Of a stretch of 64,000 bases of DNA, positions 1,743-20,532 are shown one piece after another. Position 1 is the first letter of the stretch, and the number at the start of each line of letters is the position of its first letter. The position numbers and the translations under genes are program-made. This stretch comes from Bacteroidia bacterium (GTDB taxonomy: Bacteria > Bacteroidota > Bacteroidia > M30B66): NCBI GenBank assembly GCA_965279035.1, contig OZ257142.1, positions 2,464,001 to 2,528,000 of the forward strand, given 5' to 3'. The notes below the pieces were generated by a model that saw only the letters and a list, made by a program, of their open reading frames with translations, was not told the origin of the DNA and did no database searches.

Positions 1743-4325
1743 ATGTTCCTCCGCATTTCCAAAACCCTTTTTATCATCTGGAAATACACACGCAAACCCT
1801 TGATGTGGTTGGCTGGAAGCATTACAGTTTGTATTCTTGCTGCTTGGATATTAGCCGCTATTTTTGAAGATGAAGTCAAAGAATTCTTTCTTCAGAAAAT
1901 CAATGCAGAACTCAATACCAAAGTGGAGATTGGAAAAATAGAATTCTCTCTTCTATCGCATTTTCCAAATGCAAGTATTTCACTAGAGCAAGTAAAAGCT
2001 CATCATTCCAAACCATATAAAGGTGCTGGATATTTATTGGAAGCGAGTTCCATCGATTTTAGTTTTAGTGTATTGGATTTATTCAGTGGAAACTATACGG
2101 TTGATCAAATTGATCTCAACAATGGAGCAATCAATATAATACGCAACGAAGATGGTATCATTAACTACGAATTGATTAAATCGGATACCACAAAAGGAAA
2201 AGAAGACGGAAAATTTCAATTTGAGTTAAGTGCATTCCACGTTCGAAATGTGAATATGCTTGTACGTGATGATCCTTCCGATTTTGCGACTTTATTTTTC
2301 ATTAGCAAAGGGAAATTCAGTGGAGCATTCACAAAAGACATTTTCGATCTTGAAATCGAGAGTGAAATTCAATTAAATCATCTCACAAGCGACGAAACTG
2401 TATGGATTCAAGATCGTCCTCTGAGCATTGACCTTGGTTTACAAATCAATCAGAAAGAAGACCTATACACATTTTCAGAAGGAGAATTCCGAATTTCAGA
2501 TTTAGCACTTTCAATTCAAGGTACTATTCAGAATAAAGAAATTCCAACGTTCAATTTGCAATTTGGTGGAAAGAATTTGGATATAAGTTCATTCTTGTCC
2601 TTGCTGCCAAAGGAATATAATGAACAAATTAAAAAGTACCGAAGTGATGGTAAATTCTACTGTTCGGCCGAATTAAAAGGAAAGTGGAGTAAAGAAGAAA
2701 ATCCGTTTTTCAAAGCGGAATTTGGAATACAAAAGGGTGAAATCCTACAAAAGGAAAATGATATTCAATTAGAAGATGTGAATTTTAGCGGAAGTTTCAA
2801 CAATGGCTCTAAACATTGTTTAGCAACAAGTACCTTGGATTTACAAAATGTGCAAATGAAATTGAAAAGCGGCACGGTAAAAGGCCGACTTAAACTAATC
2901 AATTTTGACCATCCAAATTTGAATGCTCAAGCCAATGCATCCTTATCTCTAAATGATATTCAACAATTTTTCCCATTAGATCCTTTGTTTTTAAAAACTG
3001 GAAATGCTTCTCTTCAAATAACCTTGAATGGTCCAATTGCCGGAGGTTTGAAACCAGGAACATCCCCAACAAATCAACTTCTGGCTAATGGCTTACTTCA
3101 AATTGAAGATGCCTCATTTAAAATACAAGGTGATTCACTTGATTATTCGGGATTTTCAGGGAATTTCCGTTTTAGTAATAATGATGTGTCGGTCGATAAT
3201 TTCAGAGGAAAAGCCGGTCAAACAGATTTCTTAATGAAGGGCCATTTAGGGAATGTATTTGGCTATTTGTTTTCGAAAGATCAACCAATCTATATTGAAA
3301 CAACAGTTCAAAGTCAGCATGTGTATTTGGATGAATTGTTTGGGCGACATTCAACTAATAGCAATCCTGATTCAGCCTATCGATTTCGAATTTCACCACG
3401 ACTTAGTTTGAAGGTGAATGCCCGAGTTGATCAATTGCAATTCCGGAAATTTAAAGCTAAAAGTATTGTTGGTGATTTTCGTGTTTCAAATCGTGAACTC
3501 ATTGCAGATCGACTCATTCTTCAAACAATGGGTGGTTCATTAAGTATGAATGGGAATGTTGATGGAACTCTAGAAAAAAATCTACTACTCACCTGCTCTG
3601 CTAAACTTAAAAATGTTGATATCACAAGCGTTTTTGTTGAGTGCGAAAATTTTGGGCAGGATGTAATGAATGATAAAAACATCCGCGGAAAACTAGAAGC
3701 CGATGTAAATTTCACAACGCTACTTTCGGCTGGATTGGAAATAGATTTGAATAAACTCTACTGTCGATCCGACATTGTTATCAGTCAAGGAGAGCTGATC
3801 AATTTTACACCTTTGAATAATCTATCTCGCTTTATTAGTTTGGATGAATTGAAGCATGTTAAATTCTCCACTTTAAAAAATCAAATCGAGATTCGAGATC
3901 GAAAAATCATCATCCCAAAAATGGATATTGCCTCAAGTGCTATAAGTATTGGAGCTTCAGGAACACATAATTTTGACAACATAGTTGATTATCATTTTGA
4001 GATTTTACTTTCAGATCTTTTATCCCGTAAAGCCAAGAAAGCCAAAATAGAAAATGAAGAATTTGGGGTAATTGAAGAAGATGGATTGGGGAAAACTCGA
4101 TTGTTTATTTTGATGAAAGGTCAGCTCGATAAGCCAATCATTGCTTACGACAAAAAAGGAGCTCAACAAAAAATCCGGAACGACCTCCAAACAGAAAAGA
4201 AAACGATGAAACAGATTCTGCATGAAGAATTTGGATTGTATAAAAAAGACAGCACCATCATCAAAAACAAAAAAATCATCCCAGATAAGAAAAAGAAAAA
4301 GGTGATTATAGAGTTTGAAGATTAA
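1743..4325 (+). CDS. AsmA-like family protein
   Basis: N-terminal TM anchor, long beta-rich body, C-terminal segment FSTLKNQIEIRDRKIIIPKMDI..SGTHNFDN. Confidence 0.85.
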   Translation: MFLRISKTLFIIWKYTRKPLMWLAGSITVCILAAWILAAIFEDEVKEFFLQKINAELNTKVEIGKIEFSLLSHFPNASISLEQVKAHHSKPYKGAGYLLEASSIDFSFSVLDLFSGNYTVDQIDLNNGAINIIRNEDGIINYELIKSDTTKGKEDGKFQFELSAFHVRNVNMLVRDDPSDFATLFFISKGKFSGAFTKDIFDLEIESEIQLNHLTSDETVWIQDRPLSIDLGLQINQKEDLYTFSEGEFRISDLALSIQGTIQNKEIPTFNLQFGGKNLDISSFLSLLPKEYNEQIKKYRSDGKFYCSAELKGKWSKEENPFFKAEFGIQKGEILQKENDIQLEDVNFSGSFNNGSKHCLATSTLDLQNVQMKLKSGTVKGRLKLINFDHPNLNAQANASLSLNDIQQFFPLDPLFLKTGNASLQITLNGPIAGGLKPGTSPTNQLLANGLLQIEDASFKIQGDSLDYSGFSGNFRFSNNDVSVDNFRGKAGQTDFLMKGHLGNVFGYLFSKDQPIYIETTVQSQHVYLDELFGRHSTNSNPDSAYRFRISPRLSLKVNARVDQLQFRKFKAKSIVGDFRVSNRELIADRLILQTMGGSLSMNGNVDGTLEKNLLLTCSAKLKNVDITSVFVECENFGQDVMNDKNIRGKLEADVNFTTLLSAGLEIDLNKLYCRSDIVISQGELINFTPLNNLSRFISLDELKHVKFSTLKNQIEIRDRKIIIPKMDIASSAISIGASGTHNFDNIVDYHFEILLSDLLSRKAKKAKIENEEFGVIEEDGLGKTRLFILMKGQLDKPIIAYDKKGAQQKIRNDLQTEKKTMKQILHEEFGLYKKDSTIIKNKKIIPDKKKKKVIIEFED

Positions 4326-4343
4326 TCCGATAGCTATCGGATT
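4324..4343. repeat. Perfect 20-bp palindrome AATCCGATAGCTATCGGATT
   Basis: Read directly. A degenerate second copy (ATCCTGATAGCTATCCGGA) lies at 4379-4397. Confidence 0.85.
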
Positions 4344-4432
4344 GATGTGCTGGTAAATATTGTGCTTATGTGCTGATTATCCTGATAGCTATCCGGAGAA
4401 GTGCTGATTGAAAATGTGCTGATTTGCTGATT
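4343..4432. repeat. Degenerate TGTGCTGA(T) short-unit repeats
   Basis: Several TGTGCTG/TGCTGATT units, the same motif as at 19424-19514. Confidence 0.7.
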
Positions 4433-4496: not shown

Positions 4497-4650
4497 TTTG
4501 AGTTTCCCAACAGCATCCCCGAAATTCATTCCGGGTTTGATGTTTTAATTTAAAGTTTGAGTTTCCCAACAGCATCCCCGGAATTCATTCCGGGATTTAT
4601 AAGTTAATTTGATGTTTGAGTTTCCCAACAGCATCCCCGAAATTCATTCC
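4497..4650. repeat. Three direct repeats of 36-39 bp with 59-bp period, each hairpin-forming
   Basis: TTTGAGTTTCCCAACAGCATCCCCG(A/G)AATTCATTCC(GGG) starts at 4497, 4556 and 4615, separated by two different 20-nt AT-rich linkers. Confidence 0.92.
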
Positions 4651-17065: not shown

Positions 17066-18205
17066 ATGAAGTACCTCGTTCATCTTTGTCGCACACTTGT
17101 TGGCGTTCTTTTCATAATTTCTGGCTTAATCAAATCGAACGATACCATTGGTTTCGCCTATAAACTCGAAGAATATTACCAAGTTTTTGGTACAGAGTTT
17201 TTGATTTCATCGGCTGTATATCAAGCAATGGCTATTTGCATTGTTGAAGTAGTTTTAGGTGTCATGTTATTATTAGGATACCGTAAAAAACTCACTCTGT
17301 TTCTCTTAATGGCAATGATTGTGTTTTTCACTTTCCTAACATTTTACTCAGCCTACTTCAACAAAGTAACCGATTGCGGATGTTTTGGAGATGCGCTTCA
17401 CCTTACTCCTTGGCAATCTTTCGGAAAAGATGTTGCTCTTTTGATTTTGATATCAGTCCTTGTTGTTGGCAGCAAACACATTCAACAATTATTCAGCAAT
17501 AAAGTAACACTCGGCATTCTCTCAATTGCCTTGATTCTCAATATTGCATTCCCAATTTATACATACAATTATTTACCGGTGAAGGATTTCCGTCCTTATG
17601 CTATTGGCAACGATATCATTGAACAAATGAATGGTGGTCGCCCCGGGAAATTCGATACACGTTTTGTTTATAAAAATCTTCAAACCGGAAAGGATGAAGA
17701 AATGGCTAAACCGCCTTATACTGATACGATTAACTGGGAAATCGATACGTTAAAATGGAAGTTTGTCGATACAAAACAAATAGTTCTCGATCCAGGTGAG
17801 CAAGCTCCAATTCACGATTTCAGTATTAGCAGTGTCGAAGGTTCAGAATTCACTGATGATTTCTTAAAACACGACAGTCTGCATTTCTTCCTTGTTAGTT
17901 ATGATTTAACAAAAGCAGATCGAGGCGTACAACCTCAAATTAATGCATTCGCGCAAGCTTGTGAGAAAAACGGAATTCCATTCATCGGCTTATCTTCTAG
18001 CACACCTGAAGCAATCGACGAATTCCGCCACGAAGTACAAGCTCCTTACGATTACTACATTACCGACGCCACCCAACTAAAAACCATGATCCGCTCCAAT
18101 CCAGGACTCATGTTACTAAAAGGCTCTAAAGTCCTTGACATGTGGCATTATCACAGCTTTCCAAGCTTTGAAGATTTTAGAAAGAAATATCCTTCAAATA
18201 AGTGA
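17066..18205 (+). CDS. DoxX family (BT_3928-like) membrane protein
   Basis: FIISGLIK.ND..GF..KL.EY, DCGCFGDA, RSNPGL. Confidence 0.88.
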   Translation: MKYLVHLCRTLVGVLFIISGLIKSNDTIGFAYKLEEYYQVFGTEFLISSAVYQAMAICIVEVVLGVMLLLGYRKKLTLFLLMAMIVFFTFLTFYSAYFNKVTDCGCFGDALHLTPWQSFGKDVALLILISVLVVGSKHIQQLFSNKVTLGILSIALILNIAFPIYTYNYLPVKDFRPYAIGNDIIEQMNGGRPGKFDTRFVYKNLQTGKDEEMAKPPYTDTINWEIDTLKWKFVDTKQIVLDPGEQAPIHDFSISSVEGSEFTDDFLKHDSLHFFLVSYDLTKADRGVQPQINAFAQACEKNGIPFIGLSSSTPEAIDEFRHEVQAPYDYYITDATQLKTMIRSNPGLMLLKGSKVLDMWHYHSFPSFEDFRKKYPSNK

Positions 18206-18230
18206 TGTGTATTCTAGGACTTATGCAAGT

Positions 18231-19211
18231 CTATGCAGCGTATTTTTTTAGATCAACATAGGGTGTTTTTCTTTTTACGACAGCAAATACTCTTGATACA
18301 AGTTTGTTTTTGACTGCATTGAGTGCACAATTATAATGTTTTCCTTCCTGGATTTTACGCTCCATATATTCTCTCATTTCGGTGTTATTTAATACTGCCG
18401 AACGCGCCGCCATTGTTAATACTCCATTGATTTTTCGATTTGATCTTCTATCGGTTTGTGTTTTCCCTTTTATGGATGTTCCTGATGATTTTTCGAATGG
18501 AGCTATTCCACTATAACATGCATATTGACGAGCATTGTCGAAGTATTCAAAGCCATTTGTTGTGGCGATTAAATACCAACTCGACACTGGTCCAACTCCT
18601 TTTATAGATTGAACTAATTCGTCGATTTGACGAAGATTATCATCTGACTTTATCAATGATTTGATTTCCTCTTCTACCAGTTTAAGTTTATCGTTAAAGG
18701 TCTTTAACAGATCCGTTTCGATTTGAAAAACTATATCTACACCAGTGGTTTTTGATGAGTTCTTAAGTCTGTTTTTGATGCCTATCTTCTCTTTTTCCAG
18801 ATGCGAACGCATACTCAAGAGCTTTCTCAGCTGCGCTACAGCACTCTTTGATAGTACCGTTGGGCTAAGCTGTTCTGCATGTAATGCAATGAAATTTGCG
18901 ATTCTTTGGGAGTCTATCTTATCATTTTTGCCTCGCTGAAGTCCAATAGAATACTTAATGTTTAAGGAGGATTCCATGTAAAAACAGATCTTCTTTTCAC
19001 TCAAAAACACAGATAAATCCTCGCTATAAATACCCGTATGCTCAAAGCAAATGGCCATCGATTTTACACTCACTTTCAACTGCTTTAACCAAGCAAGCAT
19101 CAGTGTATAACCATCGATATCATTGCTAAAGACGTTGTGCTGAGATTGATTATGTAAATAAACATCCAGCGTTAATTTTGACACATCAATGCCAATAAAG
19201 TTCTTCTTCAT
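18231..19211 (-). CDS. IS110 family DEDD recombinase/transposase
   Basis: FIGIDVSK, CFEHTG, KNDKID (DEDD tetrad), SIKGVGPVS, YSGIAP...SSG, NAVKNKL. Confidence 0.95.
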   Translation of the reverse strand: MKKNFIGIDVSKLTLDVYLHNQSQHNVFSNDIDGYTLMLAWLKQLKVSVKSMAICFEHTGIYSEDLSVFLSEKKICFYMESSLNIKYSIGLQRGKNDKIDSQRIANFIALHAEQLSPTVLSKSAVAQLRKLLSMRSHLEKEKIGIKNRLKNSSKTTGVDIVFQIETDLLKTFNDKLKLVEEEIKSLIKSDDNLRQIDELVQSIKGVGPVSSWYLIATTNGFEYFDNARQYACYSGIAPFEKSSGTSIKGKTQTDRRSNRKINGVLTMAARSAVLNNTEMREYMERKIQEGKHYNCALNAVKNKLVSRVFAVVKRKTPYVDLKKYAA

Positions 19212-19224
19212 ACTTTTGTTTTTA

Positions 19225-19407
19225 AGTGTTGCTCTTGGCTAAAACCTTTAATAGATCTCGAAGTCTAAAATTCTAGCTGGCCATTAACAACATGGTTAAA
19301 GGAAACGGGGACTCATACACACCTTAGGGATTTAAAGACCTAGCTGATGAGATAGTTCACCCCGTTTCTTTGTTTATTTTCAGTCAAGATATCTCAACTA
19401 AAATAAT
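19225..19407 (-). ncRNA. Putative IS110 bridge RNA (target-binding and donor-binding loops); ends approximate
   Basis: Stem 19298-19310/19360-19371 encloses target-matching segments at 19343-19349 and 19318-19321. A second loop holds donor-matching segments at 19270-19276 and 19244-19250. Confidence 0.75.
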
Positions 19408-19423
19408 AGTGCAAGTCTAAAGG

Positions 19424-19514
19424 CTGATGTGCTAGTGTGCTGATGTGCTAGTGTGATAGTGTGCTGGTTTGTTATCCTTATCAGCACATTAGCACATAAA
19501 CTAATTAGCACATT
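19424..19514. repeat. 8-bp-period tandem repeat with inverted arm (long hairpin)
   Basis: CTGATGTG/CTAGTGTG units; 19428-19443 is the reverse complement of 19481-19496 with one mismatch. Confidence 0.85.
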
Positions 19515-20532
19515 ATTTAAGTTTCGCTTCCAACACTCTGATCTCTCTTGAAGGAGAACCTCCTTCATAAAGGATGCGGTGGACAAAATCGCAAATCGGT
19601 AAATCAACTCCTAGGCTTTTGTTGACCTCGTTGAGTGAATGAACTGCGTAAAAACCTTCGGCGATCATATTCATCTCGAGCTGTGCCGATTTAACGGTAT
19701 AGCCTTTTCCAATCATCTGTCCGAAAATACGGTTACGACTGAATTGTGAGTAGGCAGTTACGAGCAAATCTCCCAAATAGGCACTTTCGTTTAAGTCGCG
19801 ATTGACATTAGGAACGGCTGCATCGAGAAAACGCTTCATTTCCTGCATGGCATTCGAAACCAGAACTGCTTGGAAATTATCCCCGTAATTCATCCCACGA
19901 GTAATACCAACCGCCAACGAAATAATATTTTTCATAACCGTTGCATATTCAATGCCTTGTACATCATTCAAAATCGTGTGTGTATGAATAAACCGACAGT
20001 TGAGAATATGAGCCATGCGTAAAGCCAATTCTTCATTCACTGCCGAAACGGTCAAATAGGATTGTCGCTCCAAGGCAACTTCTTCGGAATGACAAGGACC
20101 GGCGATAATACCCATTTGTTTTGGGTGAATGCCAATGCTTGTATGCAGGTAATCAGTAATGATTTCGTGTCTTTCGGGAATCATGCCTTTGATGGCAGAG
20201 AATACCGATTTTCCATGAAATGCATCTTTAGATAAACCCGACAAGGTTTGATGCACAAATGCAGCAGGCAAAGCCAAAATGATCATTTCCGAACCAGCTA
20301 TAACGGCTGATAAATCGGAGGAGGGATGCACTTTGTTCATGTCGAGCTGAATATCGCTCAGATAGCGCGGATTGTGTGAAAACTGCGCAATGTGCTGTAC
20401 TTGCTCTTCCGAACGCATCCACCAATGAACATGAATGGGACGTTCGTTTAAGATTTTAACAATGGCTGTAGCCCAACTTCCTGCACCTATTACGGCAACC
20501 GAAGGCATATGAGCAGATGGTTGATCGCTCAT
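19513..20532 (-). CDS. gpsA: NAD(P)H-dependent glycerol-3-phosphate dehydrogenase
   Basis: GAGSWATA, AIKG, GPCHSEEV, KNI, GDLLVTAYSQFSRNR. Confidence 0.95.
   Translation of the reverse strand: MSDQPSAHMPSVAVIGAGSWATAIVKILNERPIHVHWWMRSEEQVQHIAQFSHNPRYLSDIQLDMNKVHPSSDLSAVIAGSEMIILALPAAFVHQTLSGLSKDAFHGKSVFSAIKGMIPERHEIITDYLHTSIGIHPKQMGIIAGPCHSEEVALERQSYLTVSAVNEELALRMAHILNCRFIHTHTILNDVQGIEYATVMKNIISLAVGITRGMNYGDNFQAVLVSNAMQEMKRFLDAAVPNVNRDLNESAYLGDLLVTAYSQFSRNRIFGQMIGKGYTVKSAQLEMNMIAEGFYAVHSLNEVNKSLGVDLPICDFVHRILYEGGSPSREIRVLEAKLK

Follow-up and report, generated by a model that had tools for sequence, protein, structure and literature searches.

An IS110-family insertion sequence in a Bacteroidota genome whose candidate bridge RNA matches a many-copy intergenic octamer motif

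The RNA basis of targeting by IS110-family insertion sequences (ISs) has been known since 2024. Elements of this family that are specific for repetitive extragenic palindromic (REP) sequences have been known since 2003-2006 (IS621; ISPpu9, ISPpu10 and ISPa11; PMC1525189, PMC11208160), and REP specificity is reported for ISPpu9/ISPpu10, ISPa11 and other Pseudomonas elements of the family (PMC1525189, PMC12288879, preprint 10.64898/2026.03.19.712850); for IS621, 144 of 173 insertion sites are reported to be REP (PMC11208160). For IS621, an element of Escherichia coli, published work describes a left target guide in the same sense as the left flank and a right target guide complementary to the right flank (PMC11208160, PMC11208158), along with 'handshake guides' directly beyond the right guide, which bind the donor's final bases after strand exchange (PMC11208158). 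The element described here was found in a Bacteroidia bacterium (M30B66; assembly GCA_965279035.1) at positions 2,464,001 to 2,528,000 of contig OZ257142.1, a stretch of 64 kb that was analysed whole, is called the window, and supplies all coordinates below. The window holds one such element, at 18210-19423, which is very probably an intact IS110-family insertion sequence of the bridge-RNA type with its guide set on an octamer-unit target, a many-copy intergenic motif.

Likeness to IS621 extends to a recombinase of about 326 amino acids (aa) with a DEDD RuvC-like domain and a serine-bearing Tnp domain, a non-coding left end upstream of the gene with two predicted internal loops, the senses of the candidate target guides and their handshake-like bases, and a dispersed intergenic repeat as target. 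The two are distant in sequence, the host here belongs to the Bacteroidota, and the target is an AT-rich motif unit of 8-bp period, not a GC-rich REP palindrome. As reported for ISPpu9, ISPpu10 and ISPa11, the copies of an IS110-family element all lie within copies of one host intergenic repeat; a REP stem-loop is reported to gate insertion of ISPpu10, whereas the unit here is a direct octamer and a hairpin is present at some occupied sites only. A landing pad of the REP type itself (an imperfect GC-rich palindrome of about 35 bp) was considered and set aside, since the unit is a direct 8-mer that forms a hairpin only with an inverted array. Literature searches turned up no paper on an octamer-targeting IS110 element in Bacteroidota, or on the arrays; the supplementary tables of PMC11208160, with their thousands of natural targets, may cover the clade. 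The parts of the element and the two target halves are:

18210-19423, minus strand: IS110-family insertion sequence (ends conserved in nine related elements; separate 1221-nucleotide (nt) contig, 18206-19426, in run X19)
18210-18230, minus strand: right non-coding end (RE), 21 nt, ending ...CCTAGAATA (sequence and conserved ends)
18231-19211, minus strand: recombinase, 326 aa, IS110-family DEDD/Ser transposase (Pfam PF01548 and PF02371, structure alignment)
19212-19423, minus strand: left non-coding end (LE), 212 nt, candidate bridge RNA gene (alignment, predicted folding)
18203-18209, minus strand: right target half after insertion, CACATCA, base 18209 being the single C shared with the element end (sequence, flank comparison)
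19424-19428, minus strand: left target half, ATCAG (sequence, flank comparison)

The element is 1214 bp long, or 1215 bp when the shared C (18209) is counted at both ends, and it begins with CCTTTAGACTTGCAC... on the left and finishes with ...GTCCTAGAATA(C) on the right. The transposase relatives compared were drawn from genome contigs (5 loci) and metagenome contigs (10 loci) and read in recombinase orientation, which is the minus strand of the window. Six full-length relatives (L001, L006, L007, L008, L009 and L010; 67-86% aa identity) have the same two ends as the window element, the sequence common to all being CCTTTAGACTTGCAC... on the left and ...GTCCTAGAATAC on the right with unrelated sequence outside, and three partial relatives (L002, L004, L005) have one of the two ends each. 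The nine related elements thus bear out the boundaries 18210 and 19423 given in the first-pass annotation, the sole ambiguity being the shared C, which fits at either end. Terminal inverted repeats are absent (the ends read CCTTTAGAC... and ...CCTAGAATA), there is no multi-base target duplication, and the core is one base: every left junction has the shared C and then C (AG-C-C; AT-C-C in L010), and every right junction reads TA-C-A. When the left flank, one C and the right flank of a sister element are joined, they give letter for letter the intact repeat copies elsewhere in its host genome G003, which confirms a single shared C. We rejected a 'CA core' alternative, with the element starting at a G one base earlier: empty sites would then be out of register, and with the boundary three bases off these intact copies are not reproduced. 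A dinucleotide core differing between donor and target (CC/CA or AC/GC) is unlikely, since it would yield mixed junctions and none were seen, and on this ground the crossover is read as probably confined to the shared C.

The recombinase matches PF01548 at 2.5e-16 (profile positions 1-148 of 155) and the C-terminal Tnp profile PF02371 at 2.2e-18 (positions 2-86 of 87). Residues 4-318 of 326 align with solved bridge recombinases, those of ISCro4 (PDB 9t56, E 1.6e-25 only, although the best solved-structure match) and IS621 (8wt6, E 1.5e-22). Residues D9, E57, D97, D100 and S243 stand within conserved IGIDVSK, CFE, D..D and SG motifs; in the residue-by-residue alignment, which was inspected for ISCro4, the IGIDVSK, CxE, D..D and SG motifs recur and S243-G244 is aligned to the SG of that protein. 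The catalytic set reported for IS621 is D11, E60, D102, D105 and S241 (PMC11208158).

The LE, taken from the left terminus to the start codon, was aligned for six distinct elements, and almost all of its variable columns fall within two short segments. The predicted fold (RNAalifold and a hand-written structure) consists of a 5' stem-loop and two internal loops enclosed by stems. Standard pairs fill 96.2% of the cells of the hand-written structure, against 38-50% when partners are slid by 1-3 columns; compensatory changes occur at six pairs, and none of 500 shuffles scored as high as the observed alignment. In the more distant relatives L001, L009 and L010 the 5' part of the LE is longer by an insert of about 38 nt that includes a GGGGGUCUGGGGG-type segment (alignment columns 25-62); the window element and L006 have no such insert. 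The predicted parts of the candidate RNA are:

19378-19403, minus strand: 5' stem-loop of the candidate bridge RNA (predicted structure)
19300-19370, minus strand: candidate target-binding loop with closing stems (predicted structure, pair scoring)
19343-19353, minus strand: 5' side of the target loop, left target guide, AUCUCAUCAGC, whose last 7 nt (CAUCAGC) equal the left flank plus the shared C
19314-19324, minus strand: 3' side of the target loop, AGGUGUGUAUG, with antisense matches to the right flank and the element end
19229-19290, minus strand: candidate donor-binding loop with closing stems (loop sides invariant in the six aligned elements)
19268-19279, minus strand: 5' side of the donor loop, CAGCUAGAAUUU, in which CUAGAAU equals the RE end CCTAGAAT
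19240-19251, minus strand: 3' side of the donor loop, UUAAAGGUUUUA, in which UUAAAGG is antisense to the LE start CCTTTA

By base complementarity, the first loop matches both halves of the target and changes with the target among relatives. On its 3' side, the GGUGUG of AGGUGUGUAUG complements the shared C and the right flank (C-ACAYC), one of the pairs being G.T, and the UAU is antisense to ATA, the final three bases of the element, in a handshake-like position. Four guide types correspond to four different left flanks: in addition to the window type, an AAAUAGC guide goes with the left flank ...GAAATAG (L001, L007, L008), an AUUAGC guide with ...CACATTAG (L009) and a UCAUCUAUC guide with ...TCATCTAT (L010). 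The cognate left guide agrees at 6-7 of 7 positions at all 13 left junctions, compared with 2-6 of 7 for non-cognate types, and the cognate right guide pairs at 4-6 of 6 positions strictly, or at 6 of 6 with G.T pairs allowed, at all 11 right junctions. The second loop is complementary to the element's own joined ends and is conserved: the RE end reads CCTAGAAT-A, both sides of the donor loop are identical in 6 of 6 sequences, and UUAAAGG together with the adjacent UCUA may pair discontiguously with CCTTT-AGA (UCUA-UU-AAAGG), which would resemble the right donor guide described for IS621.

The survey of other copies was built on contigs of relatives plus contigs of run X19, a run that contains 98% of the sampled words of the stretch. 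The closest relatives (L006, L002/L016 in G002, seven contig-end pieces in G001 and two in G005; 84-96% nt identity over the part compared) carry the left guide of the window's target loop wherever that loop is on the contig. Counting that of the window there are eight left junctions, each finishing in ATCAG after AC, AT or TT, and all six right junctions start with CACATCA or CACATTA, so the flank comparison proposed in the first-pass annotation returned the same half-sites throughout, and the continuations seen in X19 are alike. Six of the eight left flanks lie in or beside AGCACAT-rich sequence; L018 and L064 have no array within about 100 nt, and the site is accordingly taken to be the unit ATCAG-CACAT itself, not the 8-bp periodicity. 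Many occupied sites lie in one-directional arrays or beside single units without an inverted partner. In 19 of 23 flanks no open frame longer than 62 codons touches the junction; such frames were found at L007-LE (164 codons), L016-RE (108) and L062-LE (82).

Within X19, the word depth of the IS contig is 747.9, about 3.5 times that of the flanking contigs (218.6 and 204.5); contig word depth is not a copy number. The contig graph forks at each end of the element. On the left-end side, one extra continuation diverges at 19428 and shares CTGAT only, and a second departs at 19447, following 24 bases of array that include 4 differences; on the right-end side, an extra continuation diverges at 18203, shares TGATGTG and is preceded by another GCTGATGTG. 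Depth and branches fit several copies in the source genome, all in the same half-sites. Runs X1, X2 and X8 yielded parts only, namely IS-like pieces 88-100% alike and many short array pieces, and were set aside as evidence on habitat or strain; no RNA run contains the stretch.

The target site forms the middle of the consensus unit ATCAGCACAT. This unit belongs to a short intergenic motif that is often repeated with an 8-bp period and is present in tens of copies per genome in this Bacteroidota lineage. The landing pad is a dispersed intergenic repeat in many copies, far above chance. In the window it is represented by:

19424-19515, no strand assigned: octamer array (T-R-R-TGTGC units) followed by inverted units (Tandem Repeats Finder (TRF), folding)
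19436-19445, minus strand: intact 10-nt target CATCAGCACA (TGTGCTGATG) (motif search)
19480-19491, plus strand: intact 12-nt target motif ATCAGCACATTA in the inverted arm (motif search)
4343-4432, no strand assigned: second intergenic motif cluster with two one-mismatch target copies, adjoining CCGATAGCTATCGG-type palindromes (motif search)

TRF gave period 16 with 100% matches at 19423-19455 and period 8 at 19428-19465, with inverted AGCACATT units at 19483-19515, and the array and inverted units fold into one long hairpin between convergent genes (z -4.4 and -4.2 on either strand). The intact copy at 19436-19445 and the one-mismatch copies near 4369-4424 that the first-pass annotation had listed were recovered by motif search, the latter as TGTGCTGATT at 4369-4378 and 4415-4424. 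Allowing up to one mismatch, CATCAGCACA is found 14 times in the window; shuffled sequence gives 3.76 +/- 1.93 and never attains 14 in 100 shuffles. Of the 14 matches, 6 are in the intergenic clusters 4361-4424 and 19436-19496. Motif abundance was counted in relatives, 24 genomes of the family of G002, which are incomplete assemblies prone to break at repeats: the 12-mer ATCAGCACATYA has 14-42 copies in 8 of them (G001, G002, G004, G005, G006, G007, G008, G024) and 0-7 in the other 16, with 0-2 for the reversed control. IS DNA is present in G001, G002 and G005, all motif-rich, and as one weak 50-nt match in G021; it was not found in the other 20 of these 24 genomes. Of 16 loci around exact 11-mer matches in G001/G002, 12 are intergenic arrays and 4 are single chance matches within genes, and in G004 23 of 24 clusters (at least 2 units) lie outside open frames of at least 100 codons. 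Since the target is a many-copy intergenic motif, the element lands outside genes and has many alternative sites, in support of the inference in the first-pass annotation that it uses a dispersed multi-copy repeat other than REP: the repeat is multi-copy in related genomes, and the target loop matches the flanks and changes with them. The description as a 'safe' landing pad is plausible because the sites are intergenic.

The insertion point and its two neighbours are:

17066-18205, plus strand: MauE/DoxX-like membrane protein gene (Pfam PF07291 6.1e-21, PF07681 1e-06)
19513-20532, minus strand: gpsA, NAD-dependent glycerol-3-phosphate dehydrogenase (domain and open reading frame evidence)

The TGA stop codon at 18203-18205 of the DoxX-like gene is the opening triplet of an octamer unit, TGATGTG (AAG TGA TGTG spans 18200-18209, plus strand), and from 19424 the plus strand reads CTGATGTG CTAGTGTG CTGATGTG CTAGTGTG. 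From TGATGTG at 18203-18209 to these units the flanks keep one 8-bp register across the element, so that the earlier statement that the repeat is interrupted in unbroken register holds. The insertion point is 4 nt past the DoxX-like stop codon, and the element parts that gene from the array hairpin. It has the same orientation as gpsA, which lies just upstream of its left end and whose stop TAA runs straight into TGTGCT, and no open reading frame is disrupted. A scan of 18000-19700 for sigma-70 promoters and intrinsic terminators gave 5 against 5.3 in shuffles and 0 terminators, Bacteroidota promoters being outside the scope of the scan.

The same gene order without the element is found in G002 (aa identity: gpsA 89%, DoxX-like 79%, next gene 87%), where ...AAAAATCAG is followed directly by CACATCA and then by the complement of the DoxX-like stop codon, and ATCAG-CACATCA stands at the same distance from the DoxX-like gene end as the window site. 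This comparison was anchored on the stop codon, because the arrays differ in length and aligning the intergenic region, IS removed, to that of G002 with MAFFT was of no help. The site is empty in G006 too (gpsA 98% aa identical where covered; DoxX-like 96% aa, about 85% nt), and there BLAST brings window positions 19425 and 18209 to adjacent positions. The site predicted to be empty in relatives is thus empty in both, so the insertion is younger than the split from them, but the exact 15-mer predicted is not present letter for letter in either, these being other species (85-91% nt identity in flanking genes). In G004 (gpsA 99% aa, 91% nt) a different gene follows gpsA, and the DoxX-like gene, found on another contig, terminates with TAA and lacks an array; as a side observation, the synteny break lies exactly at the array (L043, contig C66 of G004, against window 19480-19513), gpsA and the first units being shared and a 431-aa gene on the opposite strand following. 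Comparison of these loci indicates that octamer arrays change quickly between close relatives.

Other guide types of the clade were found at repeats as well. One element (75% aa identity to that of the window) is present at three sites, L001, L007 and L008, with flanks belonging to a repeat of about 45 bp, ...GTAGAGCTGAAATAG-CACACTKCATGGCAAGCCTCGAAC..., of which G003, the genome with L001, holds four intact copies with the exact 13-mer; its target is the centre of this dispersed repeat, which insertion leaves otherwise unchanged. L010 is inserted in a ATCATCTAT-type short repeat. Together with the octamer, these targets indicate that at least three guide types of the clade are set on repeated intergenic host sequence.

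By analogy with IS621, the element would be excised as a circle in which the right end ...CCTAGAATA is joined to the left end CCTTTAGAC..., with the predicted junction ...CCTAGAATA-C-CTTTAGAC.... From the left end in these joined ends, an RNA with two internal loops would be made, of which the donor loop would pair with the joined ends of the element and the target loop with both strands of the chromosomal site ATCAG-C-ACAT(C/T) (the ATCAGCACATCA site), and the recombinase would then carry out serine-mediated strand exchange at the single shared C. RNA production, the circle and the chemistry of exchange are all proposed by extension from the family as reported (PMC11208160, PMC11208158), and harmlessness to the host is presumed.

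Several points weigh against this reading. The covariation comes from six sequences and the guide-bearing loops are inherently unpaired, so it is supportive, not strong. No bridge-RNA family was matched in Rfam 15 with E values allowed up to 1; the two matches obtained were far sub-threshold ones to microRNA precursors that reflect the array hairpin. The left donor guide matches 7 nt only, with its final two positions unmatched, which is also a difference from IS621; the right target guide needs one G.T pair, and as three of the four types share similar right flanks, only L010 discriminates. For 8 contig-end junctions there is no guide on the contig, and their type was assumed from 88-96% nt identity of the IS part. 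The junctions share a single C, in place of the CT dinucleotide core of IS621. From X19, the depth is no count of copies, and an RE-LE joint is not among the contig joins listed for the run (contigs, not raw reads); transcription of the LE and a circle junction are predicted steps. The array of the empty G006 site is one 8-bp unit shorter (...CACACTAG CACATCA, gene end) and has neither the ATCAG half-site nor a full target, so that either the array length changed there or the insertion came with an 8-bp gain.

The last of these points would also be expected if the octamer arrays were products of the element, as insertion or excision footprints or derivatives of its ends, and not a pre-existing pad: without the IS, the window locus would still exceed the empty G006 site by one unit, and arrays are gained and lost between close relatives. 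We give this explanation next to no credence, because the motif is unlike the IS ends, insertion of the sister element brings no other change to its target repeat, IS110 excision is reported to be scarless (PMC11208160), and five genomes with 14-42 motif copies (G004, G006, G007, G008, G024) have no IS match, though these are incomplete assemblies. Recognition of the site by protein-DNA contacts or DNA structure, for example the array hairpin, with an incidental match of loop and flanks, is very improbable on the present evidence: four guide types go with four left flanks and many occupied sites lack an inverted partner, even though the window site is at the foot of a strong hairpin and a target stem-loop is reported, in a preprint, to add to the specificity of ISPpu10.

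It is also unlikely, if somewhat less so, that there is no adaptation to repeats at all and that the element has a plain 10-12-nt specificity whose copies drifted into a sequence common in their hosts. The target is short, and two of the eight left flanks (L018, L064) have no array nearby, as this view would have it. It differs from a guide set on the repeat in wording only, however, the site being many-copy and intergenic in the IS-bearing hosts, and the target of the sister element is the centre of a different dispersed repeat of about 45 bp, which is hard to obtain twice by chance.

Read as a bridge-RNA element with a guide set on a many-copy intergenic motif, the locus is a natural example from outside the Proteobacteria for which occupied site, empty site, guide and sister elements with re-set guides are all available together. 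The compact pair of recombinase and candidate guide (1.2 kb, 326 aa; Bacteroidota), with its readable code, would be useful, and the element marks a peculiar family of octamer arrays that is seemingly undescribed. The understanding of how IS110 elements work is unchanged, and no new mechanism is proposed. A bolder reading, which we regard as doubtful, is that the clade tracks lineage-specific repeats by edits of its target loop (CAUCAG for the octamer, AAAUAG for the repeat of about 45 bp, UCAUCUAU for the ATCATCTAT-type repeat), that the arrays are an undescribed class of fast-turnover sequence at gene 3' ends of one Bacteroidota lineage, often starting at the stop codon and often forming hairpins with inverted arrays, and that the single-C crossover is a real departure from IS621.

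The nearest described counterparts of the arrays are 'long simple sequence repeats' and the TAACTGA heptamer arrays; the latter are reported from Beggiatoaceae, Cyanobacteria and a few Bacteroidetes, where most of them immediately precede start codons (PMC4679880). The likeness lies in direct intergenic arrays of a short unit, patchy phylogeny, stop codons in the unit and overlap with the very end of a gene only; the arrays here differ in an 8-nt T-R-R-TGTGC unit, frequent pairing with inverted arrays and a position mostly after stop codons, and TGG is common, so that the stop is not conserved. Units start with TGA, TAG, TAA or TGG, and the first unit supplies the gene's stop codon at both window-locus genes, the DoxX-like gene of G002, G006, the gpsA of G004, L028, L029 and L031. 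That arrays always abut stop codons was rejected, since only 6 of 24 clusters in G004 lie within 8 nt of a frame end (at least 100 codons, matching orientation), and the idea that a stop codon is kept in every unit is weakened by the frequent TGG units of that genome.

Array loci were recorded at window 19424-19515 and 4343-4432 and at L025, L028-L031, L034-L036, L038-L042, L055 and L075-L091. At several loci the first unit provides the stop codon for both members of a convergent gene pair, and close relatives differ in having (G006) or lacking (G004, DoxX-like) an array at the same gene end. A perfect palindrome of 14-18 bp, of the type (T)CCCGATAGCTATCGGG(A), is found repeatedly between the AGCACAT units of G001 and G005, with the shorter form CCGATAGCTATCGG at window 4320-4400 (further loci: L020, L021, L035, L038-L042, L062), and appears to be a second dispersed element tied to the octamer motif. 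Other arrays in G001, of ATTACGGA/ATTACGAA (8 bp) and of TTCAAAT(T) (7-8 bp), often adjoin AGCACAT arrays (L035 on contig C12, L036, L038, L040, L042). In G004, arrays at L081-L083 (contigs C40, C44 and C45) lie inside repeated blocks of about 60-120 nt with flanking CCCTTCGACAGGCT and GTTTAGATTTCGT, 2-3 per locus and on different contigs. A 59-bp tandem repeat (TTTGAGTTTCCCAACAGCATCCCCGAAATTCATTCCGGG...; 2.6 copies, 90% matches) at 4497-4650 closely follows the second motif cluster of the window.

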